Below, one piece after another: positions 10,515 to 37,744 of a DNA stretch of 37,744 nucleotides. Position 1 is the stretch's first letter, and the number at the start of each line of letters is the position of its first letter. Both the position numbers and the translations under genes were made by a program. Location: NCBI GenBank assembly GCA_050015895.1, contig JBEKAN010000003.1:1-37744 (forward strand), read 5' to 3'. Source of the DNA: Verrucomicrobiota bacterium (GTDB taxonomy: Bacteria; Verrucomicrobiota; Verrucomicrobiia; Limisphaerales; Palsa-1400). The notes beneath the pieces are model-generated. The model worked only from the letters and a program-made list of their open reading frames with translations, did no database searches and was not told the origin of the DNA.

Positions 10515-10535
10515 CATGCCAGCCGCCATCTATTC

Positions 10536-11033: not shown

Positions 11034-11171
11034 ATTGATTCCGACTTGGAGAATTTCATTTTGGTGGGAGATTTTGCTTGCGCCTGCCCCCAAACATATT
11101 AGAATAAATGACGAGTTGAATTAGCTCGTTTGTCCTTTGTCCTGACGAAAATCAAAGAAAGGATGCCGAAT

Positions 11172-11750: not shown

Positions 11751-11900
11751 TGGTCATGCTGTTTTAAGCCATTGGCAAACAAAGGGTTGGGCATCGGGCC
11801 GGGATGGGATTGTAAAAAGTTTGACAAAGAACTTGCATTGCGGGTTTTCAGTGGTATTTTGTCTCTCCGAGTCAACTGAGTTGACCGAAACTCCGAATCT

Positions 11901-13913: not shown

Positions 13914-13920
13914 TTTTTTG

Positions 13921-14844: not shown

Positions 14845-14866
14845 TAAGAGCGGATGATTTTTCCCA

Positions 14867-14894
14867 TTGACCCAATGCTGAATTGAAGTATATT
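14867..14894 (+). promoter_or_regulatory. Putative sigma70 promoter for the oxidase structural genes
   Basis: TTGACC-16 bp-TATATT in the AT-rich spacer before ATG 14940. Confidence 0.55.
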
Positions 14895-14939
14895 CGTATT
14901 TGCATAAATTGCTTTTGAGAAAGCAAGATTAACAAATCC

Positions 14940-16799
14940 ATGCAGGACACATCACACGCGCACGAGGCCCACGAGCCGGGTTTTTGGCGGAAGTACATTT
15001 TTTCCACCGACCACAAGGTCATTGGAATGCAGTACGGCGTCACGGCCCTGCTGTTCCTGTTTTTCGGCTTTTGCCTGATGCTGCTGATGCGGTGGCAGTT
15101 GGCGCATTCGGGGGAGGCGGTTCCGTTTCTGGGAAAACTCCTGCGGAGGATCCACGGGCCGGACATGATCAGCGCGACCAAAAGCGGCGCGGTGGGGGTG
15201 ATTTCGTCGGATTTGTATAATTCGTACGGGGCGATGCACGGGACGATCATGGTGTTCCTGGCGATCGTGCCGCTGGCCTTCGGGGCGTTTGGGAATTTTG
15301 TGATGCCGTTGCAGATCGGGGCGCCGGACATGACCTTCCCGCGGGTCAACATGGCGAGCTACCAGTTCTATTTCATTGGCGGGATTATCATGCTGGCGAG
15401 CTTCTTCATACCGGGCGGGGCGGCCAAGGCGGGATGGACTTCCTATTCGCCGCTGGCGACGGTGGGGGACATGCACCGGCCCAACGGGCAGACATTCTGG
15501 ATCATCGGGATGGTGTGCCTGATCAACTCGTCGCTGCTGGGCGCGGTGAATTTCATCAGCACGATCATTCAATTGCGGGCCAAAGGGCTGAGCTGGATGC
15601 GCCTGCCGTTTTTTGTGTGGGCGCAGTTTGTGACGGCGTTCTTGCTGCTGCTGGCCTTCCCGCCCCTGGAGGCGGCCGGGGTGCTGCAGTTGGCGGATAA
15701 TCTTTTGGGAACGAGCTTTTTCCTGCCGACGGGCCTGGTGGTGTCCGGCACGGCGGTGCATATCAGCGGGGGGGGCAGCCCGCTGTTGTGGCAGCATCTG
15801 TTCTGGTTTCTGGGCCATCCGGAGGTGTATGTGCTGATCCTGCCGGCGATGGGGATCGTGACGGAGATCATCGCCAACAACACGCGCAAGCCGATCTGGG
15901 GCTACCGCTCGATGGTGTATTCGGCGCTGGTGATCGGGTTCCTGTCCTTCATCGTGTGGGCGCATCACATGTATTTGACGGGGATGGGGACGCGGATCGC
16001 GACGTTCTTCCAAACCACGACGATGATGATTTCAATCCCGTCGGTGATCATACTGACCTCGTTGTTCATCTCGCTCTGGGGCGCGTCCATCCGGTTCACG
16101 GTGCCGATGCTCTTTGCGCTGGCATTTCTGCCGATGTTCGGGATCGGCGGCCTGACGGGGCTGCCGCTGGGTTTCAACGTCAGCGACATCTATCTGCACG
16201 ACACGTATTACGTGATCGCGCATTTCCACTACATCGTGGCGCCGGGGACTATCTTTGGGTTGTTTGCGGGGATTTATTACTGGTATCCCAAGATCACGGG
16301 GCGGTTCATGAACGAGTTTTGGGGCCGGGTGCATTTCGGGCTGTCGTTCATTTTCATGAACTGCGTGTTTCTGCCAATGTTCTTCCAGGGGATGGCGGGG
16401 ATGTCGCGGCGCATGTATGACGGCGGGCTGACCTACGCGGCGCAGCCGGAGACCGCGACTCAAGCCGGCATTCCGGGCCTGAGTCCGTTCGTGCTGCACC
16501 TGAACACGACGATTCTCTGGGCGGCCGTCTGCCTGGGGCTGGCGCAAATTCCCTTCATCATCAATTTCTTCTGGAGCGTGGAGCACGGCCGGAAAACCAA
16601 TTCGGACAATCCCTGGGAGGCGACGACTCTGGAGTGGCAGACGGCCACCCCGCCGCCGCACGGGAACTTCGAGAAGCCGATGGAAGTCTTCCGCGGCCCT
16701 TACGAGTACAGCGTGCCGGGGGCCGCGCGCGATTTCACCACGCAAAACGAACCGGAGCAGGCAGAACCGTTGACCCATGGAAATCCCGTACGCAGTTAA
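14940..16799 (+). CDS. ctaD: Cytochrome c oxidase subunit I (A1-type heme-copper oxidase)
   Basis: STDHKVIG, MHGTIMVF, PDMTFPR, GHPEVY, WAHHM, HDTYYVIAHFHY and GMSRR. Confidence 0.97.
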   Translation: MQDTSHAHEAHEPGFWRKYIFSTDHKVIGMQYGVTALLFLFFGFCLMLLMRWQLAHSGEAVPFLGKLLRRIHGPDMISATKSGAVGVISSDLYNSYGAMHGTIMVFLAIVPLAFGAFGNFVMPLQIGAPDMTFPRVNMASYQFYFIGGIIMLASFFIPGGAAKAGWTSYSPLATVGDMHRPNGQTFWIIGMVCLINSSLLGAVNFISTIIQLRAKGLSWMRLPFFVWAQFVTAFLLLLAFPPLEAAGVLQLADNLLGTSFFLPTGLVVSGTAVHISGGGSPLLWQHLFWFLGHPEVYVLILPAMGIVTEIIANNTRKPIWGYRSMVYSALVIGFLSFIVWAHHMYLTGMGTRIATFFQTTTMMISIPSVIILTSLFISLWGASIRFTVPMLFALAFLPMFGIGGLTGLPLGFNVSDIYLHDTYYVIAHFHYIVAPGTIFGLFAGIYYWYPKITGRFMNEFWGRVHFGLSFIFMNCVFLPMFFQGMAGMSRRMYDGGLTYAAQPETATQAGIPGLSPFVLHLNTTILWAAVCLGLAQIPFIINFFWSVEHGRKTNSDNPWEATTLEWQTATPPPHGNFEKPMEVFRGPYEYSVPGAARDFTTQNEPEQAEPLTHGNPVRS

Positions 16800-17580
16800 A
16801 CCCCGGCCGGACACCGGCCTTTACAACGCGAAAATCGGCATCTGGCTGTTTTTGGCGTCGGAGGTCATGCTCTTCGGAGCGCTGTTTTCCTCCTATATCC
16901 TGCTGCGGGTGAACGCCGATCCGGGCACCTGGCCGCACCACCTGCTCAATGTGCCGCTGGGCGCGACCAACACCATTGTGCTCATCTTCTCCAGCGTGAC
17001 GGTGGTCTATTCGTGGGCCGCCTTGAAGATGAACAAGTTCGGCCTCTACAAGATTTGCCAGGGCATCACCATCCTGTGCGCGCTCACATTCCTGGGCATC
17101 AAGTCCTTCGAGTACCGGGACAAATTCAACCATTATGAGGCGCAGCTCAAGAACGGCAAATTCGCGGACGGCCATATTGACCGGGCCAGGACGAACGACA
17201 AGTTCTTCGTGTTTGAGAAGGCGCGGGTCGTGGACAGCCACGCGGAGCTGATGGAGCCGCCGGCGGCGGGTGCGAAGTTGGAGGAGTTGTCCATTCCCAT
17301 GTCCGAGATCAAAGACCGGGCGGACGGAAAGGGCAAGGAGGTGGAGAATTATGGCCCCTGGCACAGTTCCTATTTAGGGATATATTTTGTGCTGACCGGC
17401 TTGCACGCCTTGCACGTCATCGGCGGCGCCATTGTCATATTTGTGATCTGGGGTCCGCTGGCGAAGGTCTGGAAGGAGGACCCGGAGCGATACACCAACC
17501 GGGTGGAGGTGTCCGGCCTGTTCTGGCACTTTGTGGACCTGGTCTGGATCTTCCTCTTCCCGGTGCTTTATTTGCTATAA
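16777..17580 (+). CDS. ctaE: Cytochrome c oxidase subunit III
   Basis: WLFLASEVMLFGALF, NTIVLIFSS, TGLHALHV and WHFVDLVWIFLFP. Confidence 0.95.
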   Translation: MEIPYAVKPRPDTGLYNAKIGIWLFLASEVMLFGALFSSYILLRVNADPGTWPHHLLNVPLGATNTIVLIFSSVTVVYSWAALKMNKFGLYKICQGITILCALTFLGIKSFEYRDKFNHYEAQLKNGKFADGHIDRARTNDKFFVFEKARVVDSHAELMEPPAAGAKLEELSIPMSEIKDRADGKGKEVENYGPWHSSYLGIYFVLTGLHALHVIGGAIVIFVIWGPLAKVWKEDPERYTNRVEVSGLFWHFVDLVWIFLFPVLYLL

Positions 17581-22080: not shown

Positions 22081-22626
22081 ATGTCTGAGTTCGACTCCGC
22101 GGGAGCCGTCTTCACCCGACGGCCGAAGAGCCTCGCCGCCTTGATGGAGGGCAGCGCGGAGCAGGCCCGGCTCTGGCGGCCGGAGGAACTGGGGGCCATT
22201 TTCCGCCATCAAATGGCCGCCCCCGTCCTGGTGGACCTGGGCGGATACGACGCCGGGGCCGCGGTGCGGCTCAAGAAGTTGAGCGACGCCCAGAGCCTGC
22301 TGCTGAAAAGTTTTTCCGACCTTTTTCATCATCCGGCCCCGCCGGCGGAGCTTCTGGAACTGACCAAGAGCTTCGCCAAGGCGAACATGGACAACGCCGA
22401 AAGCGCGCTGCCCAACGAGGTGGCCGCCGCGCTTTACTACACCAGCATCGCCGCCGCCCTGGTCCGCCTCGACAGGCGCATTTCAAAGCTCGGGGACGCG
22501 GACCTGCGCCGGGGCCTGCTTTGGACCCGGGAGCAGCCCTGGCTCGACGACCCCACCAGAGAATTGCTTCTCCAGGCGGCGGAAAAAATCTCCCCTCCCG
22601 GCGGCAAAGGAGCCGGCGCGCCATGA
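22081..22626 (+). CDS. Hypothetical cytoplasmic all-alpha protein
   Basis: 181-aa ORF with genome-like codon usage. Stop overlaps the kinase start (ATGA). Confidence 0.8.
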   Translation: MSEFDSAGAVFTRRPKSLAALMEGSAEQARLWRPEELGAIFRHQMAAPVLVDLGGYDAGAAVRLKKLSDAQSLLLKSFSDLFHHPAPPAELLELTKSFAKANMDNAESALPNEVAAALYYTSIAAALVRLDRRISKLGDADLRRGLLWTREQPWLDDPTRELLLQAAEKISPPGGKGAGAP

Positions 22627-24719
22627 GCGACCCCTCCACACCCAAACCCCCGCCGTTCACGCCGCCGGTGTCGTCCTTTGGCGGGCCGATTGCCGAAATG
22701 ATCGCGCAGCAGATGCTGGCGCCGCCGGGGCGTCCGGGATTGCTGGCGACGTTGAACCAATATGAAATCCAGCGCGTGCTGGGCGGGGGCGGCATGGGGA
22801 TCGTGCTGCTGGCGCGCGACACCAACACGGGGCGGAGCGTGGCGGTCAAACTGATCCGGCCGGAACTGGTGGCCGACCCGCAGATCGTGCATCGGTTCGT
22901 CAAGGAGGCGGGCCATTTGCAGAAGCTGCGACATCCCAACGTGATCCCGGTGCTCGAGATTTGCGACCGGGCGGCCGGCCCGTATTTTGTCATGCCGTAT
23001 TTTGAGCGGGGAAGCCTGGCGGCGCGGATTCGGCCGGGGCAGGGGCTGGACGCGATCTTTATACTCGACATTGCGCCGCAAATCGCGGCCGGGCTGGAGT
23101 TCGCCCACCGCCGGGGAATCATTCACCGCGACCTCAAGCCGGCCAACATTTTGCTGGCGGGGGACGTCCAGGCCTGTCTGGCGGATTTCGGGCTGGCGCG
23201 GACGATGTTCAACGACACGATAGTGGACGCGGAGCGCCAGCAATGCGAGGGCACCGCGCCTTACATGTCCCCCGGCGTGGCCGCCGGAAACGCGGAGGAC
23301 ACGCGCTGCGACATCTACGCCTTCGGGGCGCTGCTCTACGAAATGCTCACCGGCGAGCCGCCTTACGCGGGAGGGACCCTGCAGGAGATTCGCCGGCAAA
23401 TCCTGGCGACCCCGCCGAAACCGATCAAGGAACGAAACGCCCGCGCGGACGGCGGGCTTTGCGCGGTGGCCGAGGGCGCGATGGCGCGGGAATTGCGCGA
23501 CCGTTACGCGGACATGAGCGACGTGGCTGCCGATTTGCAGCGAATCAAGGAGGGCAAAGCGCCGGTGGGGCCGCACGGGTTGACGCGGGCGGGTCTGCGC
23601 CAGGTGCGGCGCGTCTCGCCCGTTTTGTGGGTTGCGGCGGGCGTCATTGCGGCGGCGGCGGTGGTCTCGTCTTTTATCCGCCCCGCCACCCAGTCAGAGC
23701 CTGGGCCGCTTGCTCCGGTGGTCGCGGCCACGAATCCACCACTCCCCAGGGTGAACCCGCCGCTTGTGGCAAACCCCCCGCCACAAACGCAGCCGCGCTG
23801 GACGGCCTCGATTTTTGCCGGACAGTCCGGGGTCGCGGGCAGTCAGGATGGGAGGGGAACGAACGCGAGTTTTCGGACGCCCGGCGGTGTGGCGGTGGAC
23901 ATGCTGGGCAATGTCTATGTGGCCGATTCGGGCAACCACACCGTTCGAAAAATCACCCCGGACGGGACGGTGGCGACCCTGGCGGGACTGGCGGGCAGCC
24001 GCGGGAGCCTGGACGGCCGGGGAAACGGCGCGCGGTTTTTCGCGCCTTTTGGAATTGCAGTTGACAGTGTTGGGAATGTTTATGTGTCGGAAGTGGGCAA
24101 TTGCACGATTCGCAAGATCACGCCCGACGGACAGGTCAGCACCCTCGCGGGGCTGGCGGGGAATCCGGGGAGCAACGACGGTGTGGGAGACAACGCCCAA
24201 TTCCGCAATCCATTCGGCGTGGCGGTGGACGCGAGCGGGAATCTGTACGTCGCGGACACGAGCAACTTCACCATCCGCAAGGTCACGCCCAAGGGGGTGG
24301 TGAGCACCTTGGCGGGTTTGGCGGGCGCTCACGGCGGCGCCGACGGCCCTGGCACGAACGCGCGATTCTGGGAACCTCGGGCGGTCGCGGCATATTTCCA
24401 GGGACAGGTCTATGTCGCCGACACCGGCAACCACGCCATTCGGAGAATCTCTCCGGGCGGGGTGGTTACCACTGTGGGCGGGAGTGGGCAGTTTGTCGCC
24501 GCGGGTGCTTCTTCGTCATTCATTTGGGTGGCCGACGCCGAAAGCCGCGCGATTCGTGGTCTGCCTGTTTCCGGCGACGCGGTGACTCTGCGGGTGGACG
24601 CGGACGTGGGGCACCCTGATGCGCTGGCTGCGGAAGGGCATGGGGACATCTACGTGGCCGACACCATGAACAACGTCATCCGCAAACTGACCCCGGCGCG
24701 GCCCTCCCCCGGCCGGTAA
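22623..24719 (+). CDS. Membrane Ser/Thr protein kinase with extracytoplasmic NHL repeats
   Basis: GGGGMGIV, VAVK, HRDLKPANI, DFG and DIYAFG; TM helix; Pro-rich linker; repeated P.GVAVD..GNVYVAD..N.TIRKITP. Start at ATG 22623. Confidence 0.95.
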   Translation: MSDPSTPKPPPFTPPVSSFGGPIAEMIAQQMLAPPGRPGLLATLNQYEIQRVLGGGGMGIVLLARDTNTGRSVAVKLIRPELVADPQIVHRFVKEAGHLQKLRHPNVIPVLEICDRAAGPYFVMPYFERGSLAARIRPGQGLDAIFILDIAPQIAAGLEFAHRRGIIHRDLKPANILLAGDVQACLADFGLARTMFNDTIVDAERQQCEGTAPYMSPGVAAGNAEDTRCDIYAFGALLYEMLTGEPPYAGGTLQEIRRQILATPPKPIKERNARADGGLCAVAEGAMARELRDRYADMSDVAADLQRIKEGKAPVGPHGLTRAGLRQVRRVSPVLWVAAGVIAAAAVVSSFIRPATQSEPGPLAPVVAATNPPLPRVNPPLVANPPPQTQPRWTASIFAGQSGVAGSQDGRGTNASFRTPGGVAVDMLGNVYVADSGNHTVRKITPDGTVATLAGLAGSRGSLDGRGNGARFFAPFGIAVDSVGNVYVSEVGNCTIRKITPDGQVSTLAGLAGNPGSNDGVGDNAQFRNPFGVAVDASGNLYVADTSNFTIRKVTPKGVVSTLAGLAGAHGGADGPGTNARFWEPRAVAAYFQGQVYVADTGNHAIRRISPGGVVTTVGGSGQFVAAGASSSFIWVADAESRAIRGLPVSGDAVTLRVDADVGHPDALAAEGHGDIYVADTMNNVIRKLTPARPSPGR

Positions 24720-27110: not shown

Positions 27111-30100
27111 ATGCCCGTTGAACTGACAGAAGCCCTGCTCGGCAAGGCCGCGGGTTGGGAGGTGATGAAACGCGCCCGCCTCTCCCTGGGGCAGGGCCGG
27201 GTGCTCAGTTCGTTTTGGGCCGCGCCGCTCCTGCGCGGGGTTGTGCAGGAGGGGGAAAGCTCTTTCCGCGCCTCGATGGTGATCCACAGCGACGTGGACA
27301 TCGAAAACCTCTGCACGTGCCGCGAGGCGCGGGAGTGGGGGAAAATCTGCGCTCATGGCGTCGCGGTCGGTCTGCACTGGTTGAACGGACAGACGACCCC
27401 AGCCGCCCCGGCTCTGGAGCGTCCTCTGGAAGGCGGGTCCGCGGAGGCGCTCGCGGGCCGGGGATCTTGGACGCCGCGGCGGGATGCCGATGGCGAACCG
27501 GCCGCGCTGTGCGTCATTCTGCCGCCGAATTTCGAGCAAGCCGTCGCGCGCGGCAAAGTGATGCTGGTGTTGGAGGCGCAATGGACCGGGGGACGCGGAC
27601 CGCTCAACGCCCCGCCCAAGGGCCGCCGCTTCGCGTTCCCGCCGCCGGACAGCGCCATCCTGGAGCGGCTTGAGATTCTGACCGGCGGCCAGACGCCTGC
27701 CGTCCTGCAAATGCAGACAGAGGATTTCGCGTCGCTGCTCCCGGCGTTGGCGGACCATCCGAACATTACCCTTGGCAGAAGCTGCGCGGTCACCGTCACA
27801 ACAAAGCCGTTGCAAATTCCGTTGCGCGCCAATCTGGAGTCGAACGGCGAAATCACCGTGGCCCAGGCTGGTGGAGGCCGGCCGACGCTGGTTACGATCG
27901 GGGACTGGGTTTGGCGGGAGCACACCTTGCAACCAGTGGGCCTGCCGCCGGCAATCCGGGAGGTGCTGCGGGGACCGGTGCGCGTGCCCAGATCGCAAGT
28001 GCCGCAGTTCCTGAGTCTGCATTGGCCGCAACTGGAGGCGACCGGCGGCCTGGAAGCTAATTTCAAGGCGGAAGATTTCACTCTGGAACTCCAGCCGCCC
28101 CGTTTTCTGCTGGAACTCAAGGGCGGCCTCGCGCGACTGGGTGCGCTTGTCCAATGCGCCTACGGTCCGCGCCTTGTGACGGCCGGCGTGACCGCCTCCG
28201 GTGAAAGTGCGTGGCTGCCGGATCCGGAGGTGACGACGCGCTACTCCGCGCGCGATTTGGCCGCCGAGGGCGCGGCCCTGGCCCGATTGCGGCGCGGCGG
28301 CTTCACCGGGCCGGACGCGCAAGGCGGGCTGCAATTGACTGGACAGGAGGGGGTCCTGAATTTTTTCGCGGCCGAACTCCCCAGGTTGCAACGCGAGTGG
28401 AGGGTGACTTTCGAGGAACGCCTCGAACGCGGCGCCGCCAGGAGCCTCGAACGCATCCAACCGCGGTTTCAAATCACCCCCGGCGCGCAGTGGTTTGATT
28501 TGGGCGTGGTGTTCGAGTCGGGTGGCGGGGAGGTGTTTTCGGCGGCGGAAGTGCAGCGGCTGCTCCTCTCCGGCCGCAGCCACACGCGCCTGGCGAACGG
28601 GAAGACGGCGGTGATTGACACCTGCGCGGTGGAGGAGTTGCGGGAAGTGTTGCTGGACTGCGATCCTCGGCAGGAGGAGGGCGGCTGGCGCGTCCGCAAC
28701 ACCCAGGCGGGCTTTCTGGAGGCGACCCTGCGGCAGCACGCCGATTGGGTGGTGCGGGCGCCCTCGGCCTGGCGCGAGCGCGCGGCCGTCCAAAGCGGCG
28801 AGGCCAGGCCGGCCTGCCCGCCGCTGGGGGATTTGGAAAATGTGCTGCGGCCCTACCAGAGGGACGGGGTGGGGTGGCTGTGTTTTCTGAGGGAAAACGA
28901 ATTCGGGGGCATTCTGGCGGACGAAATGGGGTTGGGGAAGACGCTCCAAACCCTGGCGTTCCTGAGCACATTGCCCAAGCAACCCCGCCCGCATTTGATT
29001 GTCTGCCCGACGAGCCTGGTCTTCAACTGGCTGGCCGAGGCGAAGCGATTCACGCCCGCCCTGAAAACGCTCGCGCTGCACGGGCCGGACCGGCACACGC
29101 GGTTCGGGGAGATTGCGGGCTGCGACATTGTGGTGACCAGTTACGCGCTGATTCGCCGCGACGCGGAGCGGTACCGCGCCCTGGAGTTCGACACTATCGT
29201 GCTGGACGAGGCGCAGCACATCAAGAACCGGCAGACCCAGAACGCGCAAGCGGTCAAAGCGGTGAACGGGCGGCGGCGGATTGTGCTCACCGGCACGCCG
29301 TTGGAGAATTCCGTGCTCGATCTCTGGTCCATCTTTGACTTTCTCATGCCCGGCTACCTGGGAAGCGCCCAGGATTTCCGCGAGCGATACGAATTGCCGA
29401 TCACGCGGGAGAAGAGCGGCCCTGCGCAGACCCGTCTGGCGCGGCGCCTGCGGCCCTTTCTGCTGCGGCGGCTGAAGAAGGATGTGGCGTCCGATTTGCC
29501 GGCCCGGCTGGAGCAGGTCTCCTATTGCGAACTGACGCCCGACCAGCGGAGTGTCTATCAGCAAGTCATTGAAGCCGGCCGCAAGGAGATGCTGGAGGCG
29601 GCCGGGGCGCAGGGCGCGGCCAAGAGCCGGATGCTGGCGCTCACCGCCTTGCTGCGGCTGCGACAGGTGTGCTGCGATTTGCGCCTGCTAAAATTGGATG
29701 GAGTCGTCCCCGCCAACGCCTCCGGGAAACTGGAATTGTTCGACGAGCTGTTGGAGGAGGTCATTGACGGCGGCCATCGCGCGCTGGTTTTCAGCCAGTT
29801 TGTCAGCCTGCTGGCGCTGGTGCGGGAGAGGCTGGCGGCGGAGGGGATTGAGTATTGCTATCTTGACGGCGCCACTTCCGACCGGGCGGCGGTGGTGGAG
29901 CGGTTTCAAAGAGAGGGCGCCATACCGGTGTTTCTCATCAGCCTCAAGGCGGGCGGGGTGGGGCTGAACCTGACGGGCGCGGACACGGTGATTCATCTTG
30001 ATCCCTGGTGGAATCCGGCGGTGGAGGACCAGGCGACGGGCCGCGCCCATCGCATTGGGCAGACCAAGGCGGTGACCAGCTACAAGCTCATCGCGCGCGA

Positions 30101-30227
30101 CACAGTGGAGGAGAAAATCCTGGCGCTGCAAAACCGCAAACGCGAAATCATCGAGGCCACCATCGGGGGCGAGGAGGAATTCGCCGCGTCGCTGACCTGG
30201 GGGGAAATCCAGGAACTGCTGGCCTGA
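27111..30227 (+). CDS. SWIM zinc finger SNF2-family helicase
   Basis: CTC......CAH (SWIM); ADEMGLGKT, DEAQ, TGTP, SLKAGGVGLNLT and RAHRIGQ. Confidence 0.95.
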   Translation: MPVELTEALLGKAAGWEVMKRARLSLGQGRVLSSFWAAPLLRGVVQEGESSFRASMVIHSDVDIENLCTCREAREWGKICAHGVAVGLHWLNGQTTPAAPALERPLEGGSAEALAGRGSWTPRRDADGEPAALCVILPPNFEQAVARGKVMLVLEAQWTGGRGPLNAPPKGRRFAFPPPDSAILERLEILTGGQTPAVLQMQTEDFASLLPALADHPNITLGRSCAVTVTTKPLQIPLRANLESNGEITVAQAGGGRPTLVTIGDWVWREHTLQPVGLPPAIREVLRGPVRVPRSQVPQFLSLHWPQLEATGGLEANFKAEDFTLELQPPRFLLELKGGLARLGALVQCAYGPRLVTAGVTASGESAWLPDPEVTTRYSARDLAAEGAALARLRRGGFTGPDAQGGLQLTGQEGVLNFFAAELPRLQREWRVTFEERLERGAARSLERIQPRFQITPGAQWFDLGVVFESGGGEVFSAAEVQRLLLSGRSHTRLANGKTAVIDTCAVEELREVLLDCDPRQEEGGWRVRNTQAGFLEATLRQHADWVVRAPSAWRERAAVQSGEARPACPPLGDLENVLRPYQRDGVGWLCFLRENEFGGILADEMGLGKTLQTLAFLSTLPKQPRPHLIVCPTSLVFNWLAEAKRFTPALKTLALHGPDRHTRFGEIAGCDIVVTSYALIRRDAERYRALEFDTIVLDEAQHIKNRQTQNAQAVKAVNGRRRIVLTGTPLENSVLDLWSIFDFLMPGYLGSAQDFRERYELPITREKSGPAQTRLARRLRPFLLRRLKKDVASDLPARLEQVSYCELTPDQRSVYQQVIEAGRKEMLEAAGAQGAAKSRMLALTALLRLRQVCCDLRLLKLDGVVPANASGKLELFDELLEEVIDGGHRALVFSQFVSLLALVRERLAAEGIEYCYLDGATSDRAAVVERFQREGAIPVFLISLKAGGVGLNLTGADTVIHLDPWWNPAVEDQATGRAHRIGQTKAVTSYKLIARDTVEEKILALQNRKREIIEATIGGEEEFAASLTWGEIQELLA

Positions 30228-30230
30228 TGG

Positions 30231-30272
30231 AGGACTGGGATTAAGATTAGGAGTAAGATTAGGATTAAGAAT
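30231..30272 (-). repeat. Hexamer array (AATCYT family, reverse orientation) x7
   Basis: aggact gggatt aagatt aggagt aagatt aggatt aagaat, ending immediately before ATG 30273. Confidence 0.9.
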
Positions 30273-31253
30273 ATGACCGCCACCATCACCGTTCATTCCA
30301 GCCAGTTCCCGGAAAATGTCCGGCGCGACCTCATCCATTCACTCCACGCGCGGAGTGTCAACCCCAAGTTCCACTACGACACCTACAAGCAATCGCAAAA
30401 GTGGCTGGCCCTGCACGAGGCCCATTCGCCCTCGCGCACGGATCCCGCCTGCGCGGCGATTTACGATCTGGCCTTTGCCGCCACCGCGGAGCGAATTCCC
30501 GCGCCGCGGGTCCGGGTGATTGCGCTGGGCTGCGGCGGGGGGCAGAAAGAGGCGCGGTTGCTGGGCCTGCTGGCGGGGCGGGGAAAGGAGCTTTCGCACA
30601 CGCCCTGCGACGCGAGCTTGGCGCTGCTGCTCACCGCCCGCCAGGCGGTGCGCGAGGCGGCGGCGGGGGATATTCCGAGCTATCCGATCCTCTGCGACTT
30701 GGCGACAGCCGGCGATCTGCCCCTGGTTTTCGGCCCCTCGGCGGACGCGGGCGTGACGCGCTTGATCACCTTTTTCGGCATGATTCCCAATTTTGAGCCG
30801 GCGCTGATTCTGCCGAGTCTGGCGGACCTGACGCGACCGGAGGACTGGCTGCTCTTGAGCGCCAACCTGGCGCCCGGCCCCGACTATGCGGCGGGCATGC
30901 GGCGCATCCTCCCCGGCTACGACAACCCGCCGACCCGCGACTGGCTGACGACCTTCCTGTACGATCTGGGATTCACGCCCGGGGACGGGGACGTCCGCTT
31001 TGGCGTTGAGACTTCGGCGGAGGGGCTGAAGCGGGTGGTGGCGGACTTTTATTTGACAGAGAGTCGCGCGCTGACGGTGGAGGGGGAGCATTTTGAGTTT
31101 CGCGCCGGGGAGAAGATCCGGCTCTTTTTTTCCTATCGCCACACGCCCGACCGAATCCGCGCCCTGCTCAAGCTCCACCAGCTCGAAGTATGCGAGCAAT
31201 GGCTGGCCCCGTCCGGGGAAGAAGGCGTTTTTCTGTGCAGGAGACTTGTCTGA
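30273..31253 (+). CDS. EgtD-like SAM-dependent methyltransferase (Methyltransf_33), divergent
   Basis: PKFHY, LGCGGGQK, FFGMIPNFEP, GYDN and EKIRLFFSYR, collinear with EgtD-family motifs. Confidence 0.75.
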   Translation: MTATITVHSSQFPENVRRDLIHSLHARSVNPKFHYDTYKQSQKWLALHEAHSPSRTDPACAAIYDLAFAATAERIPAPRVRVIALGCGGGQKEARLLGLLAGRGKELSHTPCDASLALLLTARQAVREAAAGDIPSYPILCDLATAGDLPLVFGPSADAGVTRLITFFGMIPNFEPALILPSLADLTRPEDWLLLSANLAPGPDYAAGMRRILPGYDNPPTRDWLTTFLYDLGFTPGDGDVRFGVETSAEGLKRVVADFYLTESRALTVEGEHFEFRAGEKIRLFFSYRHTPDRIRALLKLHQLEVCEQWLAPSGEEGVFLCRRLV

Positions 31254-31307: not shown

Positions 31308-34300
31308 TCAATGCACGACGACGCGGTAGAATCTGGCGGGGGGGGCGGGAAGGTTGGTGTCCTGGATTTGCATGGTCTGCCCGGTGCCGGGCAGGTTGCT
31401 GGAAAGGACGGTCCAGTTGGTGGAGAACAAGGAGGTGGAAGTCTCCAGCGCGTAGGTTTTGCCGTACACGGAAGGCCATTGGATGGTGAAATTGGCGGAG
31501 GGCGAGACTTCCAAGACGGACTTGGGGTCCAGCGGATTGGTGCCAGCCACGTACTCCTGCCAGTTGGAGGCGCCATCGCCGTCGGGGTCCAGATCGGCGG
31601 CGGAAAGGAGGTTGGAAACGGTGCCGAAATAAACCAGCCGCCACCAATCCGGAATGCCGTCGTTCCAGCTTGAGGCGGAGCGATCCCCGCCCACGGTGAT
31701 GAGGCCGTCCTGGATGGTGGTTTGGAAGAGGGCGATGCCGTTGGGAGAGGCTGAGAAATGCTCGAAATGCAGCAAGTAGGACGAATTGGTGTTTGCGTTG
31801 GGAGGCAAAGTGACGGTGACCGTGGCGATGATGTTTGTAGCGTTGACGCCGGAGACGGTGGAATCCAGCCAGGTGGCGGCGTAATTATCCGCACCCTGCG
31901 AGAGGGTGAAGGCGGGCGCGCCAAGACCCGCGCCGGGGGAGAGGGTGATGGTGTTGGTGACGGCCGGGGAACCGTCGAGCGGGATGAGGTCCACATTGAG
32001 AGCCAGGACACGGATGGGATAAACAGGATCGGCGGCCAGAACGCGGATGGGGACTTGGACGGTCTGGCCGGCGGCGGCCTGAACGCGGTCGGCGGCGACA
32101 GTAATTTGACGGGGGCCGCTTGCTGTGGCTGTCTCAGCCGCACGAATCGGGGAGGACGTGGCGGGGCCTGTGGCCACCAGCCTGCTTGGATTGGAACTGG
32201 GGACGGTCTGGGCATAAAAAAGGCCGTTGGACCAGAAGCGCTCGTAATTCGTCAGCGCGGGATCCAAGGAGCGGCGGAAAGTGACGTATATGTCGTCCAC
32301 ATTGAGGGAACCATCGCCGTAGGCGATGGAGTTGATGGCCGTGTCGTTCCCATCGTATAAATTATTATCCCTCCCGTTGGAGGAATCCATGGCGTCAAAG
32401 AAATCGCTGCCAGGAAGGTCGCCGGCGGCACCTCCGTAAACCGCAGCCCGGAAGACTTCCACCACGTCGTCGTTTTGCAGATTGGTGTCGCCAAAATCGC
32501 CGGCATTGAACCAGCGGAACGGATAGGCATCGCCCACCAGGTAGGGGGTGACGCCGATGATGACATTTTTGACGGCGTTGATCGCGCCGAGACCCGTTGA
32601 GCCAGTGGTCGGGGCGTCGAGGACGACATTCTCGGTGGGGCCTGTGTCTCCGTTGGCGCCCGTCTCGTAAGCGGCGGAAGGGCGCCCGATTTGGATTTGG
32701 TAGGCGTCGCCGTTGGTGGTGGCCGAGGCGGGGATCATGAAGGAATAGCCGCCGACGATCACCTGGCCGCCCGAGCTGTTAAACAGAGTCTCATGGGCGG
32801 CGGACCAGGTGATCAAATCCTGCTTCAGCCCGTTGAAGTAGAGATTGGTCACCTGATTGAGTTCCAGCCAACCCACGCCGAGCAGGCCCTCGCTGGTGTT
32901 TGTGAAGAGCAGGGGTTGGAATCCGCCGTTGGTGTACTCGGCCGGGGGAATCACGATATAGGCTGTCTGTCCGGTGGGGGTGGTCACCTGGTTCAGCAGC
33001 ATGGAGTTGAATGTGTAGCTTGTGGAGGCTGCTGGAGGAGCGCCCCCCAGAGTATTGGTCGGGGCCAGGGTGACGTTGAACTGGAGGGAGTACATGGAGG
33101 CCGCCGGAAGGAGGGTCAACGTGATGGGTGCGTAAAAGGGATGTCCCGCGGCGCCGACGAAGCGGCTGGAGGCCTCGCCGTTGGCAAAGCCAAAAGTGAG
33201 TTGGTTGGGGATATAGTTGCTGGGGTTGAAGATCGCCGTGGCGGGGGTGCTGGGGGCGAAACTGTCGTAAAACGCCTCGACGGTAAGCGTGACATTGCTT
33301 GTGACTGTGAAGGAAAGGGTGGTTGGGGAATTAAGCGCGACGCCGCCGGGATTTGCGTTGTTGGTCGGCGAGGGCGGGGTGCCGTTCAGCGTGTAGTACA
33401 ACGCCGCGCCGGGCGTGGTGTCCGTCAACGGCACCATTGCGGAATTGTTGCCGGCAATGGTTGGCTCGGCGGTGACGAAGAGGAAGCGCGAGCTGACTTG
33501 CGGACTGGGAATTCGTCCGGGGGCCTGGCTGATGGCGTAGATCGTGACGTCAGAGGTTGTCGCGCCGGTCGGGAACCCCTGGAGGAAGCTGTTGGTGGTG
33601 AAATCGCTCTCCGGGGTGTCGTCTCCGGGGTAAGTATATGTGTCTTGAGTAAAACCAGGACCCACGACCGGAACGGGGCTGAAGGGACTGGTTGGAGTGG
33701 GAACGACCGTATAATAGGTTTGGACGCCCGCCTCGGAATTGATGATGATGTTGGCGTTGGTGCTGAAGACTTGGTAGGTGGAGGGGTTGAACTGGGACAC
33801 CAACTCTTCGGCCTGGGGGTCAATCACAAAGTTGACGAAGCCGATGGAGGGGGCGGAAACCGGCGGCTGGGGCGGGCTGGCTTGCACACGGCGCAAGGCA
33901 TTGTTGCCGCGGTCCACCACATAATAACCGTCGTCAATGGTGTCCACGGCCAGGCCGACAGGATTATGGAACTCGGCGACAGAAAACGCGCCGTCAATGT
34001 ATCCCGCCACTCCGGGAACGCCCACGAGAGTCTGGACGGAATAGGCGGGGGGGCTGGGCGAAGTTTGGGAGAGGAGGCGGATGGTGTTGTTGGCGGTGTC
34101 ACTGATGAAGAGGCCCGCGCCGTTGGGGTCCCAAAGCAAGCCGGACGGTTTGTCGAAGCGGGCCAGCGAGGCCTGCGGGGAATCGTTGGTGCCGAACTGA
34201 CCCACCGCCCCGGCGACCACAGTGACGGATTTATTGTTGGTGGCGCTGATGTCGCTGATGAGGCAAATGGTGTCGTTCAAGGTGTCCGCGACCCAGAGGT

Positions 34301-34916
34301 TGTTGCTAAAGTCCACCGCCACCGCCTCCGGGACGGAAAAAGTGTAGTTTGTCACAATGACGGTCGTGACCATGTTGTGAAGGTCGAGGCGGCGGATGGC
34401 GTTGTTGCCGGCGTCGGCGACATAGAGGTTTGTGCCATCGGTCGCAATGCCAGTCGGAAAGCTGAAGAAGGCGTTGGTGGCCGGCACACTGCCCGCATTG
34501 GGAGGGCCGTAGACGCCCGGACTGCCAGCCAGCAAGGAGACCTGGCCGTTGGTGGTGACCAGACGGAGAACTTGGTTGCCTTGGTCCACCACCACCAATC
34601 CATTTCGGTTGGTGTCATAGACAATCCCCAATGGCTGGGAAAACAGCGCGGCCGAAGCGGGACCATTGTTGTATCCGGCGTGGCTGGGACCGAACACGCC
34701 GGCAAAGGTGCTCTGGGTCTGGTTGGCGGGGACGAATTTGACGATGCGGTTGTTGGAGGCGTCGGTGAAATAGACGTTGTTGTCGGGGTCCCCGGTGATG
34801 GAATTTGGCTCCAGCAGGCTGTTGGAAATCACTGTGGAAACCTGCTGGGCCTGTGCGACGGCGGCAAGCAGAACCGCGACCAACGCTCCCAAGATGGAAT
34901 AGTTCTTCGTTTTCAT
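31308..34916 (-). CDS. Large secreted protein: NHL propeller, CHB/HEX-type Ig-like domain, cohesin-like and dockerin-like segments, DxDGDG..EY.AGT.P motif, FYR C-terminal domain
   Basis: Signal peptide; NHL repeats; ALYYTLNGTPP; DPDGDGASNWQEYVAGTNP; ends PARFYRVVVH. Confidence 0.85.
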   Translation of the reverse strand: MKTKNYSILGALVAVLLAAVAQAQQVSTVISNSLLEPNSITGDPDNNVYFTDASNNRIVKFVPANQTQSTFAGVFGPSHAGYNNGPASAALFSQPLGIVYDTNRNGLVVVDQGNQVLRLVTTNGQVSLLAGSPGVYGPPNAGSVPATNAFFSFPTGIATDGTNLYVADAGNNAIRRLDLHNMVTTVIVTNYTFSVPEAVAVDFSNNLWVADTLNDTICLISDISATNNKSVTVVAGAVGQFGTNDSPQASLARFDKPSGLLWDPNGAGLFISDTANNTIRLLSQTSPSPPAYSVQTLVGVPGVAGYIDGAFSVAEFHNPVGLAVDTIDDGYYVVDRGNNALRRVQASPPQPPVSAPSIGFVNFVIDPQAEELVSQFNPSTYQVFSTNANIIINSEAGVQTYYTVVPTPTSPFSPVPVVGPGFTQDTYTYPGDDTPESDFTTNSFLQGFPTGATTSDVTIYAISQAPGRIPSPQVSSRFLFVTAEPTIAGNNSAMVPLTDTTPGAALYYTLNGTPPSPTNNANPGGVALNSPTTLSFTVTSNVTLTVEAFYDSFAPSTPATAIFNPSNYIPNQLTFGFANGEASSRFVGAAGHPFYAPITLTLLPAASMYSLQFNVTLAPTNTLGGAPPAASTSYTFNSMLLNQVTTPTGQTAYIVIPPAEYTNGGFQPLLFTNTSEGLLGVGWLELNQVTNLYFNGLKQDLITWSAAHETLFNSSGGQVIVGGYSFMIPASATTNGDAYQIQIGRPSAAYETGANGDTGPTENVVLDAPTTGSTGLGAINAVKNVIIGVTPYLVGDAYPFRWFNAGDFGDTNLQNDDVVEVFRAAVYGGAAGDLPGSDFFDAMDSSNGRDNNLYDGNDTAINSIAYGDGSLNVDDIYVTFRRSLDPALTNYERFWSNGLFYAQTVPSSNPSRLVATGPATSSPIRAAETATASGPRQITVAADRVQAAAGQTVQVPIRVLAADPVYPIRVLALNVDLIPLDGSPAVTNTITLSPGAGLGAPAFTLSQGADNYAATWLDSTVSGVNATNIIATVTVTLPPNANTNSSYLLHFEHFSASPNGIALFQTTIQDGLITVGGDRSASSWNDGIPDWWRLVYFGTVSNLLSAADLDPDGDGASNWQEYVAGTNPLDPKSVLEVSPSANFTIQWPSVYGKTYALETSTSLFSTNWTVLSSNLPGTGQTMQIQDTNLPAPPARFYRVVVH

Positions 34917-37744
34917 GGCTGGAGAATTTGGATGCGGTAGAAACGCGAGCTGTCAACCGGGTTGGTGAGGGGGATCTGGAAGAGGCCGCCATCGCCCAGA
35001 TTGGTGCTGATGGGCGTCCAGTTGGTCGGCCCGAGCGCCGGGGCGGATTCCAGGAGGTAGTACTTGCCCGGAGCGGTGAGCCAGCCCAAATTGATGTTCT
35101 GCGGGTCGCCGGGGGCCAGTCCGGCGTAGTTGAATTGGAACCGGGAAAGGGCGTTGGTGGGATTGGTCCCGGCCAGATATTCCTCCCAATTGGGGACCCC
35201 ATCGCCGTCGGGGTCGGCGTCGTCGTCGGCCATTGGGTTGGTGATGCTGCCAAAGTAGTAAATTCTCCACTCGTCGGAGGTGATTTGCGGGGGCGCCAGG
35301 GGGGCGGAGGCCACCCAGGCCGATCCGGGCACGCCTTCCAATTGGTACTGGGTGTTGAAGTCCGGGGCGCCATCCACCCCGGTGAAGTGCAGGCTGTAAG
35401 ACTGTCCCCCCGCGGCGGCGGGCGGCACTTGGAAGGAGATCGAACCGAGGAAGTTGCTGCCCTGGAGGGGCGGGGAGAACGGGCTAAAAAGCGACCACGC
35501 GAAGACCATTTCGTTGGAAGACACGCCGTTGAACCGGGCGGGAGCCGGGATGCCCGCGGCGGGGGAGAATTGGAGCGGAGCGGCAAAGGGCGCGCCGCCA
35601 GCCGGCCAGAGCATGGCGCGGAATTGGAAACCGGACAGGGCGCAGCCGGGGCGGACATAGAGAGAGACCGGGATGGAGGCGGCGCCGCCGGGAAGGAGGT
35701 TGGCGACCGTGCCCGCGCTCAGGGTGGCATGCCGGTACCAAACTCCGGGTGGCAGGGAGCTGATGGAGGCTCTTGTCGGATTGCCGGAGGCGGAAGCCCG
35801 GCTGGGGACGGCGTCCGGGAGAGGGAGAAGAGGATTGGGAAAATTGGTCCACTGCACCGCCCGATGCGAGAGCACTCCGCCAGGGGTCCAGAACCGGATC
35901 CAGTTGTTGGTTTCCAATCCGAGCGAGCGAAGCAAAATATGCTGCCAATCCAGGAAGGTGATGAAGCCGTCGCCAATTTCGGAGTCTGTTTCGGGGTACA
36001 CGTCCATGGCGTTGTAAGCGTCGCTGAATGGGAAGGGCACCCGGATGCCGACGGAAGCCATGAGGGCGTTGTTGACATCGCTGTTGTCGAGGACGCCATT
36101 GCCAAATTCGCCGGCGTCGTACCCGGTGGAGGGCGCGGAATCTCCCGCGAAGTATTCGAGGTTGGAAACCGTCAGGGTCTGGTCCGACATGTTCGTCAGC
36201 GCGACGTCCGCCTGGGCGCCGTCCGATGTGCCGGAAGGGTAGCGGACGAGGATGTTGTAAGTCTGCCCCTCCAGGGCGGTGGGCGGGATGGGAACCTCCA
36301 AAAGCGCGACCGCCGCGAAATTCTGGATGTTCAACCCGGAGTCGTCGCCCGCCGCCGAGATGACCAGTCCGAGGCCGTTGGGGGCAATGGTGTTGGTGTA
36401 GGCGAAGGTCTGGAAGGCCACCGGCGCGTTTCCAGAGGCGGGGCCGACGAGAGGGAGAAAGTCGTTGGTGGAAATGGGCAGGAGGGTGAGGGAGGAGATC
36501 GGGGGGGCGCCGGGCGAATTGGAGCCGGGGTTGACCTCGACGCGGAATTGCAGGGAGCGCAATTGCTGGCCGGCTTGCAAGTTGACGACCAGCGGGATGA
36601 CCGCCGTGGAGCCGACGCCGGCCAGCTTGCTGGAGGGGAAGCCGATTTGGTTGGCGGGACTGGATTGACCGGCGGCGACGGCGCTGACCAGAATCGGGCT
36701 GGTGTTGGTGTTGACAGCGATCATTTGGAGGGAAGTCAAATCTTGCGCGGAATTGCACCACAAGAAGGAGCCGACCCAGTCGTCCAGAGTGGAATTGAAG
36801 GTCATGTTTGCCACCGTCAAGCTGTTGGTGGTGGGCGTTGTGCCGTCGGTCGTGTAAAAGATATCCGGGACGGTGCTAGTGACGGTGATGGTCTGGCATT
36901 CGGGAAAGTAGCCGGAACTTGGCCCGAAGGTCGGCGGGTTCAGGACGACGACATTGGTGGTGGTGTTAGTGCCGCTGCCGGAGACCAAGTTGGTGCCGGT
37001 CTGCGGCTCCAGGCCGACGCCGGCCACCTGGCGGAGCAGGTCGTAGTAGAGTTCGGAGACATAGATATTGCCGCCGGGGGCAATGACCAAGCTGCTGGGC
37101 GCGCGACTGGAGGCATTGGTGCGGTAGGGGCCGGCGGCGCCGTCGGTCCAGCCGGCGTAGATCTCAGACTCGCACACTGTGGCATGCCAGAGCCTGGAAT
37201 TGACGCCATAAATGGTGCTGACATTCCCGCTGGCATCAATCCGGCGCAGGGCGTTGTTGCCCCGATCGGCCACGATCAACTGTCCGTCCGCCGTCCACGC
37301 CAGGGCGGCGGGCTGGTTGAAGGCGGCGTAGCGGGGGTTGCCGTCCACCCAATTGGTGGCGCCTTCGACCGGGACAAAGGGGGAGACGTTGGTGGCCGAA
37401 ACCTCGTAGATAATGTTCTTCTTCAGGTCGCTGACGGCCAGGACGCCATCGCTTCTCCAGGCGATGGCGGAGGGCAGCCAACTGGTCCCCATGTTGATGA
37501 CCGTGTTGGTGGTTGTGATGTTGGCGCCATTTTGGGCCAACTCGATTATCAGGCCGTTGGTGAAGGAGACGAAGATGTTGGTTGCCGCGCCCTGGGAGAG
37601 GGCCAGGGCGCTGGGCTGGGAGGGCAGGGGATAGGCGAAGAGGGGATTGAAGTAACTGTTGTATTTCACCAGCGCGTTGTCGCCCTGAAGGAGGATATAG
37701 AGGTTGTCCCCCGAGTCCACCGCCACCGCCACGATTTGGCTTCT
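34913..37744 (-). CDS. Large secreted paralogue with the same architecture (5' end outside the window)
   Basis: Frame is open to the window edge. NHL repeats; IFYTTDGTTP; DPDGDGVPNWEEYLAGTNP; ends SRFYRIQILQP. Stop overlaps the next start (ATGA). Confidence 0.85.
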   Translation of the reverse strand, partial: RSQIVAVAVDSGDNLYILLQGDNALVKYNSYFNPLFAYPLPSQPSALALSQGAATNIFVSFTNGLIIELAQNGANITTTNTVINMGTSWLPSAIAWRSDGVLAVSDLKKNIIYEVSATNVSPFVPVEGATNWVDGNPRYAAFNQPAALAWTADGQLIVADRGNNALRRIDASGNVSTIYGVNSRLWHATVCESEIYAGWTDGAAGPYRTNASSRAPSSLVIAPGGNIYVSELYYDLLRQVAGVGLEPQTGTNLVSGSGTNTTTNVVVLNPPTFGPSSGYFPECQTITVTSTVPDIFYTTDGTTPTTNSLTVANMTFNSTLDDWVGSFLWCNSAQDLTSLQMIAVNTNTSPILVSAVAAGQSSPANQIGFPSSKLAGVGSTAVIPLVVNLQAGQQLRSLQFRVEVNPGSNSPGAPPISSLTLLPISTNDFLPLVGPASGNAPVAFQTFAYTNTIAPNGLGLVISAAGDDSGLNIQNFAAVALLEVPIPPTALEGQTYNILVRYPSGTSDGAQADVALTNMSDQTLTVSNLEYFAGDSAPSTGYDAGEFGNGVLDNSDVNNALMASVGIRVPFPFSDAYNAMDVYPETDSEIGDGFITFLDWQHILLRSLGLETNNWIRFWTPGGVLSHRAVQWTNFPNPLLPLPDAVPSRASASGNPTRASISSLPPGVWYRHATLSAGTVANLLPGGAASIPVSLYVRPGCALSGFQFRAMLWPAGGAPFAAPLQFSPAAGIPAPARFNGVSSNEMVFAWSLFSPFSPPLQGSNFLGSISFQVPPAAAGGQSYSLHFTGVDGAPDFNTQYQLEGVPGSAWVASAPLAPPQITSDEWRIYYFGSITNPMADDDADPDGDGVPNWEEYLAGTNPTNALSRFQFNYAGLAPGDPQNINLGWLTAPGKYYLLESAPALGPTNWTPISTNLGDGGLFQIPLTNPVDSSRFYRIQILQP

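Follow-up and report, generated by a model that had tools for sequence, protein, structure and literature searches.

A verrucomicrobial gene pair with cohesin-like and EF-hand-like modules and its secretin-operon context in related loci

Introduction

What is the task of two overlapping genes that both encode a beta-propeller joined to cohesin-like sandwiches, and to which machinery of the cell do they belong? This question is raised by a 37,744-nucleotide stretch of DNA (the window) from a Verrucomicrobiota bacterium (GTDB order Limisphaerales, Palsa-1400; assembly GCA_050015895.1, contig JBEKAN010000003.1, positions 1 to 37,744), where the genes for the proteins P0001 and P0002 lie in tandem on the minus strand. 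The initial annotation, made from the letters of the window, described a coupled pair of giant secreted proteins with cohesin-like, dockerin-like and cohesin-like modules and proposed that such proteins could polymerise into a surface lattice. Here, the modules are compared with known families and structures, and the genes are followed through related loci. The reading that we favour, with a probability of roughly 0.5, is that the pair serve a PilMNOPQ-type secretin system at the cell surface, as accessories or as cargo, with a variable NHL propeller head on a conserved base in each protein.

Results

Two paralogues with one module order

Both open reading frames (ORFs) encode an NHL propeller, an immunoglobulin (Ig)-like CHB_HEX_C domain, a first beta-sandwich (S1), a duplicated loop-helix module, a second beta-sandwich (S2), a TSP3 motif and a C-terminal beta-sandwich with an FYR tail, in this order (Table 1). 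The common order had been proposed in the initial annotation and is borne out by Pfam, where NHL, CHB_HEX_C_1/Fn3_assoc and TSP3_bac match both proteins, by BLASTP, which aligns residues 759–1201 of P0001 with residues 493–940 of P0002 (31% identity, E = 1e-34), and by the profile-profile pairing of modules with hhalign. Between the P0001 and P0002 families, the matching modules pair with probabilities of 97.7% (S1 with S1), 99.1% (S2 with S2, E = 1.1e-18), 99.6% (loop-helix, E = 9e-25) and 99.8% (C-terminal tails), and three mismatched module pairs used as controls reach 0.3–2.7%. Judged from these alignments, P0001 and P0002 are paralogues.

The two genes overlap by ATGA, as had been described, with the TGA stop of P0002 and the ATG start of P0001 read at 34916–34913. 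The peptide strings that had been quoted are all present in the two translations, and the earlier positions of the loop-helix segments are good to about 10 bases, the segments lying at 32265–32534 (P0001 residues 795–884) and 35918–36145 (P0002 residues 534–609). The term giant is generous for P0001, with 1202 residues, and for P0002, whose closest orthologue, in the related locus L001, is a 1091-residue ORF that opens with an upstream TTG. The alignment of P0002 begins at residue 153 of this ORF, inside which an internal Met is followed by a signal peptide (by eye); counted from this likely start, roughly 125 residues of P0002 would lie outside the window. Sec-type signal peptides seen by eye in P0001 and in the L001 orthologue are the whole basis for calling the proteins secreted. 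Homologues of P0001 number at least 840 at E <= 0.001 (90%-identity clusters) among 8000 candidates scored, and their source annotations read 'hypothetical protein' or, for many, 'sugar lactone lactonase YvrE'.

Secretin gene upstream of the family in related loci

Since the window ends inside P0002, the initial annotation had no view of what precedes the pair. A scan of one genome per species gave 325 related stretches, from which 80 loci were kept, mostly from Verrucomicrobiota metagenome-assembled genomes (MAGs). In 61 of the 80 loci, the gene immediately before the first family gene encodes a secretin (59 by ORF BLAST, with L072 and L056 added by tblastn). Among the remaining 19, contig ends cut 17, one family gene begins 190 bases from the contig start, and L058 is without a secretin in 3.8 kb of upstream sequence. 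The number of family genes behind the secretin gene is one in 36 loci and rises to two or three, as tandem paralogues, in 30; the exact 4-base overlap of the window recurs in 15 of these 30. In the other 14 of the 80 loci the family gene is truncated at its 5' end.

The secretin of the related loci matches Pfam Secretin (E = 1.8e-31 and 2.5e-43) and Secretin_N, and also NCBIfam PilQ (E = 1e-41) and GspD (E = 1.6e-40), both under their curated cut-offs. Three small genes that precede it have weak PilN/T2SSM/T2SSB-type matches, and a PilM_2 gene (E = 1.7e-28) stands at the head of the block in 30 loci. This PilMNOPQ-type upstream block is present in relatives and would lie beyond the window in the source genome; the secretin-operon context is new relative to the initial annotation. 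P0001 and P0002 would accordingly be read by us as the distal genes of a conserved Verrucomicrobiota PilM-N-O-P-Q-type operon, in which the secretin gene is followed by one to three paralogues.

An invariant place right behind the secretin gene in 61 of 80 loci would also suit proteins that serve the secretin as structural partners in the periplasm or outer membrane; by analogy with TsaP/TolB-like propellers, these might surround the pore as a ring or anchor and not be exported at all. The only export signal seen is that for Sec, which would by itself be enough for the periplasm, and in locus L072 the secretin frame enters the family gene without a stop codon (6410–11962, one 1850-residue ORF). 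However, the family gene in L072 still has a Met and a signal peptide of its own, which makes a true fusion unlikely. In addition, most known occurrences of cohesin, TSP3 and CHB_HEX_C-type modules are in extracellular proteins, and a copy number of one to three per operon would be odd for a fixed component of a ring. We regard such a structural role as unlikely. The fusion in L072 was itself rejected as a candidate, the read-through being more likely an assembly error or a lost stop than a designed fusion.

Minor irregularities are seen elsewhere among the related loci. In L011 (4541–8312) and in L077 (3976–8345), two overlapping ORFs take the place of a single P0002-type gene; a sequencing error, a frameshift or a pseudogene may be behind this. 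A gene for a DUF6580 membrane protein closely precedes the pil-like block in L001 (738–1397, E = 3.5e-32) and L070 (3400–4011, E = 2.1e-31), and these ORFs have a BLASTP homologue in seven other loci. Some operon-bearing contigs (L002, L004, L009, L024, L025, L029, L030, L040–L042, L044, L049 and L051) carry labels from outside the Verrucomicrobiota, namely Bryobacteraceae, Baltobacteraceae, Saccharimonadales, Dongiaceae and Acidoferrum, as well as Limnocylindrales, Acidiferrales, Sulfotelmatobacter and Bifidobacteriaceae; these labels probably stem from mis-binning in MAGs and not from a wider host range.

Both sandwiches are related to cohesins

The C-terminal portion of P0001 (residues 570–1202) was modelled with AlphaFold2 (AF2) and compared with the PDB by Foldseek, where cohesins make up 29 of the 33 rows among the matches listed. 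The best of them has E = 1.2e-9 at a probability of 1.00, and the target-normalised template modelling (TM) score is 0.67–0.79 over about 150 aligned columns; the non-cellulosomal cohesin 2xdh of Archaeoglobus fulgidus is also among the matches (E = 4.7e-8). As the Foldseek output is silent on which sandwich was aligned, module-only alignments were built from the window and the related loci, with 119 sequences for S2 (profile A7) and 112 for S1 (profile A8). The top four PDB matches of the S2 profile are cohesins (10ux_A, 7.6e-4; 10uv_A, 8.9e-4; 4uyp_A, 8.8e-3; 10ut_A, 0.014), as are 9 of its 16 matches overall, and the S1 profile has two matches in all, both to cohesins (4uyp_A, 3e-4; 2zf9_A, 1.7e-3). 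S1 and S2 are, on the evidence of profile alignment, homologous to each other, as seen within P0002 (97.9%, E = 3.4e-13) and for S1 of P0001 against S2 modules (75–96%).

The Pfam Cohesin family (PF00963) has a cut-off of 24.1 bits. Two homologues score above this cut-off: P0093 reaches 25.5 bits with a match over S2, and P0111 reaches 25.8 bits where its S1 begins. P0001 stays under it, with 10.9 bits for the whole protein and 15.5 bits for the C-terminal segment alone, the latter corresponding to a weak match at residues 939–963 (E = 0.02); P0002 has no Pfam Cohesin match, and among P0002-type proteins just 2 of 34 match at E <= 0.1. With a profile of seven C-terminal fragments (A3), the PDB search gave an EF-hand protein at E = 0.1 and otherwise nothing but chance matches. 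The cohesin-like sandwiches of the initial annotation are upheld for both S1 and S2 by the Foldseek matches, by the A7 and A8 profiles and by the two homologues above the Pfam cut-off.

A duplicated loop-helix module with EF-hand-like loops

The segment between the two sandwiches had been called dockerin-like on account of its duplicated loop and helix. The duplication itself stands: hhalign aligns repeat 1 with repeat 2 at 83% (E = 8.8e-6) in the P0002 family and at 48% (E = 1.8e-4) in the P0001 family, with 73% and 0.9% across families, and a consensus FGDGxLxxxDV is common to both repeats in 118 sequences. In the AF2 models, the module of P0001 has four helices, at residues 815–827, 838–843, 858–863 and 873–884. 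In EF-hand numbering, both loops fit at position 5 (Asp/Asn/Ser), position 6 (Gly), position 8 (Leu/Ile) and position 12, where Asp is present in 118 of 118 sequences.

A canonical 12-residue dockerin loop has Asp or Asn at positions 1, 3 and 5 and Asp at position 12. Neither loop of the family follows this pattern in the 118 sequences, as positions 1 and 3 are without acidic residues: position 1 is Gly in 109 of 118 sequences in loop 1 and Ile in 54 of 118 in loop 2, and Phe occupies position 3 in 117 and 58 of the 118 sequences, respectively. The Pfam model Dockerin_1 (PF00404) matches none of the 2 window proteins (E <= 1), none of the 7 C-terminal fragments (E <= 10) and none of the 34 P0002-type proteins (E <= 0.1). 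Similarly, a profile built on the module alone (118 sequences) has a single match in the PDB, which is the EF-hand protein 9e2g (E = 0.2) and not a dockerin. When run against 1.84 billion representative proteins (50% identity), the module profile has 705 matches at E <= 0.001, the best 150 of which all have E <= 1.2e-31 and are close family members; with the listed matches all from the close family, canonical dockerins lie beyond the reach of the hidden Markov model.

Folded alone, the module has a mean predicted local distance difference test (pLDDT) score of 82.9 and a predicted TM (pTM) score of 0.80. Foldseek with this lone module gives zero matches at E <= 0.001. Rank 2 is 4fl4_D, a chain of 65 residues from a cellulosome entry, which, from its length, we take to be the type I dockerin of entry 4fl4; the match is non-significant (E = 3.0, probability 0.21), and its target-normalised TM score of 0.60 over 78 columns is the only one of 0.5 or more among the 43 matches listed, where 5k39_B has rank 27. 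A search of the ESM Atlas is uninformative, with the best match to an unrelated family (0.91) and the third (0.89) to a cluster in which 16% of the members have Dockerin_1, no more than a lead. The dockerin-like assignment is upheld in part: the tandem duplication is retained, and the acidic positions 1 and 3, the Dockerin_1 match and a dockerin match of the profile in the PDB are missing. We regard the module as duplicated and EF-hand-like, and as possibly derived from a dockerin.

A conserved and predicted rigid base

The AF2 model of residues 570–1202 of P0001 (633 residues, built on a 49-row alignment) has a mean pLDDT of 87.5 and a pTM of 0.86, despite comprising five modules and a 21-residue disordered linker. 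This linker (residues 342–362 of the model, 911–931 of P0001; pLDDT 42) is the only disordered part. The segment PFRWFNAGDF (P0001 residues 799–808) has a pLDDT of about 94 in this context and of 54 in the lone module. The high pTM implies that the modules are placed with confidence relative to each other in the model, and we infer that the loop-helix module would pack against the cohesin-like neighbours of its own chain to form a rigid base. With the module packed in this way, any cohesin-dockerin-like contact would lie inside one chain.

Conservation is highest in the TSP3 motif (mean identity 78% in the P0001 and 62% in the P0002 family), followed by the loop-helix module (65% and 60%); the propeller is lower than the base (47% and 34%), and the inter-domain linker is the least conserved part (22% and 18%). 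This pattern fits a structural core. Both proteins contain the DPDGDG motif and match Pfam TSP3_bac (PF18884), at 20.9 bits in P0001 (E = 3.3e-4) and 17.9 bits in P0002 (E = 2.9e-3), with both scores under the cut-off of 25. The motif is also matched by NCBIfam Amuc_1099_fam (NF042425) in 63 of 70 family members, at 22–26 bits under a cut-off of 50, where it covers profile positions 125–153 of 321 and nothing outside the TSP3-like motif. The terminal sandwich lies at or close to the C-terminus and might be a sorting or attachment domain; among the first 100 of 117 ORFs, 94 continue for 0–4 residues beyond it and the other six for 7–18. A joint profile of the TSP3 motif and the terminal sandwich matches repeats of large clostridial toxins in the PDB (best E = 1.5e-5) through a W..GK.Y-like motif, a small carbohydrate-binding-type module of a Paenibacillus glucanase (1.9e-4) and, for DxDGDG, calmodulin-type loops (0.04–0.6). 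The toxin match was set aside as motif-level similarity without meaning, and none of the matches assigns the terminal sandwich to a family.

These observations bear on the model put forward in the initial annotation, whereby the loop-helix module works as a dockerin and docks onto a cohesin-like module of another chain, so that a non-cellulosomal surface lattice carrying NHL propellers would result. Such a lattice would make sense of the two cohesin-related modules that flank the duplicated module in each family member examined, and the tandem paralogues of 30 loci, half of them with the exact overlap, fit co-production of the partners. Conservation of the loop-helix module is also what would be expected of an interface, and the 4fl4 chain is the one Foldseek match listed with a target-normalised TM score of at least 0.5. 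Set against this are the absence of Dockerin_1 matches in all three protein sets, the restriction of the module profile to 705 of 1.84 billion representatives, the best 150 being close members, and Gly/Ile and Phe in place of Asp/Asn at loop positions 1 and 3. The pTM of 0.86 suggests, moreover, that contacts inside its own chain already occupy the module. As 36 of the 80 loci have a single family gene, pairing between different paralogues cannot be general. None of the computations made here supports polymerisation, and on balance we hold the lattice to be improbable. A complex prediction for P0001 residues 570–1090 with P0002 residues 362–830, run with no controls, scored 0.00 against a mark of 0.32 and counts neither for nor against binding.

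The NHL head and the Ig-like spacer

The N-terminal head is the part of both proteins that is most readily recognised. Pfam NHL (PF01436, cut-off 20) is matched by P0001 with 53.3 bits and by P0002 with 28.1 bits, and single-sequence searches of the PDB with either protein return NHL relatives only. For the head of P0001 these include the NHL domain of SOQ1 (3.3e-16), Pizza designs, NHLRC2 and PknD; the NHL domain of TRIM71 is a further relative in the PDB searches, and the full-length profile A1 is swamped by NHL matches. In the spacer that follows, Pfam CHB_HEX_C_1 matches residues 491–540 of P0001 (E = 4.7e-4) with 20.5 bits, under the cut-off of 22, and is found in 33 of 34 P0002-type proteins.

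The head also allows the proteins to be seen as ordinary secreted enzymes, with the NHL propeller as a lactonase- or lyase-type domain that leaves the cell via a type II-like secretin, and with the C-terminal modules as appendages for folding, secretion or substrate binding. P0001 indeed matches Pfam SGL (gluconolactonase-like) with 31.6 bits, above the cut-off of 26.3, and paralogues match SGL (22/34), Arylesterase (8/34) and Vgb_lyase (13/34); the lactonase name carried by many homologues and the adjoining secretin gene point in the same direction. Yet the SGL match spans just profile positions 11–78 of 246 and may be structural only, since the six-bladed fold is common to these families, and a head that is far less conserved than its base is more typical of a binding head. 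We consider it doubtful that the proteins are ordinary enzymes of this kind.

Table 1. Features of the gene pair in the window, with residue ranges, positions, strand and basis of assignment
Feature	Position	Strand	Basis
P0001, distal member of the pair	31308..34916	minus	Complete ORF, 1202 residues
P0002, proximal member of the pair	34913..37744	minus	943 residues visible; 5' end past window edge
ATGA overlap (P0002 stop TGA, P0001 start ATG)	34913..34916	minus	Read straight from sequence
P0001 1–23, Sec-type signal peptide MKTKNYSILGALVAVLLAAVAQA, without lipobox cysteine	34848..34916	minus	By eye from translation
P0001 30–345, NHL beta-propeller head	33882..34829	minus	Pfam NHL, E = 1.9e-14 in 4 stretches; SGL, TEN_NHL
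P0001 346–571, Ig-like spacer with YYT.NG..P motif (CHB_HEX_C_1/Fn3_assoc-like)	33204..33881	minus	Pfam
P0001 572–790, S1, about 220 residues with insertions	32547..33203	minus	A8 profile, hhalign; model pLDDT mostly 85–95
P0001 792–900, duplicated loop-helix (EF-hand-like, dockerin-like) module followed by beta-hairpin	32217..32543	minus	Model, hhalign
P0001 901–933, variable disordered linker	32118..32216	minus	Low pLDDT, 22% mean identity
P0001 934–1085, S2	31662..32117	minus	A7 profile against PDB
P0001 1086–1202, IPDxWRL/DPDGDG (TSP3-like calcium-loop) motif and C-terminal beta-sandwich ending FYRVVVH	31311..31661	minus	Pfam TSP3_bac
P0002 1–245, NHL propeller, N-terminal blades lost at window edge	37010..37744	minus	Pfam NHL, E = 1.8e-6; PDB NHL matches
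P0002 362–522, S1, contains VIPLVVNLQAGQQLRSLQFRVEV	36179..36661	minus	hhalign; member of profile A8
P0002 524–626, duplicated loop-helix module	35867..36175	minus	hhalign to P0001 module, 99.6%
P0002 668–818, S2, contains ASIPVSL	35291..35743	minus	hhalign to P0001 S2, 99.1%; member of profile A7
P0002 819–943, TSP3-like motif and C-terminal sandwich ending FYRIQILQP	34916..35290	minus	Pfam TSP3_bac; hhalign

Discussion

The explanation that we favour for the pair joins the operon context of the relatives to the division of each protein into a variable and a conserved part. Each protein would be exported by Sec, as the signal peptides seen by eye suggest, and would consist of a fast-evolving NHL propeller head, Ig-like spacers and a strongly conserved C-terminal base. 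The base would comprise a cohesin-fold sandwich, the duplicated EF-hand-like loop-helix module, a linker, the second cohesin-fold sandwich, the TSP3-type motif and the terminal beta-sandwich, and may fold as a single rigid, probably calcium-stabilised unit. We suggest that the proteins are either cargo of the co-encoded secretin system or accessories attached to it at the cell surface, where the propeller would be displayed as a binding or enzymatic head.

Several observations weigh against this explanation. For the source genome, the secretin operon is carried over from the 80 related loci, because the window ends inside P0002. L058 has no secretin within 3.8 kb upstream of its family gene, and the matches of the small genes before the secretin are weak (Amuc_1101-like, E = 0.004; T2SSM, 0.0033; T2SSB, 0.002–0.034). 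No pilin, pseudopilin or ATPase gene is present in the annotated part of the 10-kb flanks, where some of the flanking ORFs were scanned and conserved downstream ORFs were left out. Calcium binding by loops whose positions 1 and 3 are non-acidic is doubtful on sequence grounds, and the packing of the loop-helix module against its own neighbours is read from pTM and pLDDT alone.

A more far-reaching version of the secretin association would have the one to three paralogues assemble through calcium-dependent dockerin-like/cohesin-like contacts into a fibre or cap that is extruded through, and anchored on, the PilQ-type secretin. We judge this very unlikely. If true, the fibre or cap would amount to a 'pilus-like' surface appendage of Verrucomicrobiota that is built on cohesins, lacks pilin and bears NHL propellers at its tip, and would be the first link of cellulosome-type assembly modules to a type IV pilus or type II secretion machine.

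The closest comparison for the base is with the type I cohesin-dockerin pairs of Clostridia (1ohz, 1aoh, 4fl4, 6kgc, 4uyp). As in these, both sandwiches match cohesins in structure and in sequence, and the loop-helix module has preserved one half of the EF-hand-type loop, D-G-x-[LI]-x-x-x-D. Unlike the clostridial dockerin, the family module has loops without acidic positions 1 and 3, is not seen by the Pfam dockerin model and is longer, with four helices and about 110 residues as compared with about 65 for the matched chain. Unlike in clostridial cellulosomes, no carbohydrate-active enzyme or scaffoldin is found here, and cohesin-like and dockerin-like parts stand in one chain, which is predicted to be a rigid body. 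The base also resembles a cohesin from outside the cellulosome, 2xdh, which is among its Foldseek matches.

With regard to the proposed role, we note a parallel to PilY1-type proteins, which are large exported propeller proteins with an EF-hand-like calcium site and whose genes are linked to a type IV pilus-type machine. The PilY1 gene stands with those for minor pilins and not behind pilQ. The combination of a beta-propeller with EF-hand-like loops and the link to a pilus-type machine are thus shared, whereas the propeller family and the domain order are different, and no sequence relationship of PilY1 to the family was found in any search run here.

Non-cellulosomal cohesin and dockerin modules are already known, an example being the 'planctosome' hypothesis for freshwater Planctomycetes, in which canonical Pfam cohesin and dockerin modules are carried by separate adaptor and enzyme proteins (PMC6461901). 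The present family is similar in having cohesin-type modules outside cellulose degradation, in a bacterium of the Planctomycetes-Verrucomicrobia-Chlamydiae (PVC) superphylum, with TSP3 repeats in the same proteins. It differs in its fixed cassette of cohesin, loop-helix and cohesin, in its NHL head and in its secretin operon.

A second comparison from within the phylum is the 'pili-like' cluster Amuc_1098–Amuc_1102 of Akkermansia muciniphila, with a PilQ-type secretin and PilM-like and accessory proteins (PMC5332112). Both are secretin clusters of Verrucomicrobiota, and the secretins of the present loci match Amuc_1098_fam (E = 4.3e-21, under the cut-off), to which the partial, sub-threshold matches of the TSP3-like motif to Amuc_1099_fam may be added. 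In the passages of PMC5332112 that were consulted and in the NCBIfam models, nothing points to an NHL or cohesin-like protein in the Akkermansia cluster. In full-text literature searches, no description was found of the family, of its operon or of an NHL protein behind a secretin gene in Verrucomicrobiota.

The locus thereby draws attention to a large uncharacterised family of Verrucomicrobiota, in which a fixed cassette of cohesin, EF-hand-like and cohesin modules is encoded directly behind a secretin gene. The partners and roles of non-cellulosomal cohesin-like modules are mostly unknown, and the family provides a handle on their job outside cellulosomes. It likewise provides a handle on which proteins are exported or carried by pilus-type secretin clusters in Verrucomicrobiota, a kind to which the 'pili-like' cluster of Akkermansia is related.

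Neighbouring genes in the window

Convergent on the end of the P0001 gene, window positions 27111–31253 (plus strand) encode a SNF2-family helicase of 1038 residues and a Methyltransf_33-like protein. Among the 80 related loci, a Methyltransf_33-like gene is next to the family in none and an SNF2 gene in one; being so rarely beside the family elsewhere, these genes are not part of the system. A haem-copper oxidase cluster at 12624–17580 (plus strand), with a CtaA-like (COX15) protein, a UbiA prenyltransferase, COX1 and COX3, looks like ordinary chromosomal context.

A second NHL propeller is encoded at 22521–24719 (plus strand), where a Ser/Thr protein kinase (Pkinase, E = 1.4e-44) has a C-terminal NHL propeller (E = 8.9e-27) in the style of PknD. 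This propeller resembles, with up to 46% identity (E = 8e-60), the products of additional NHL-only genes located after the family gene in L040, L051 and L061.

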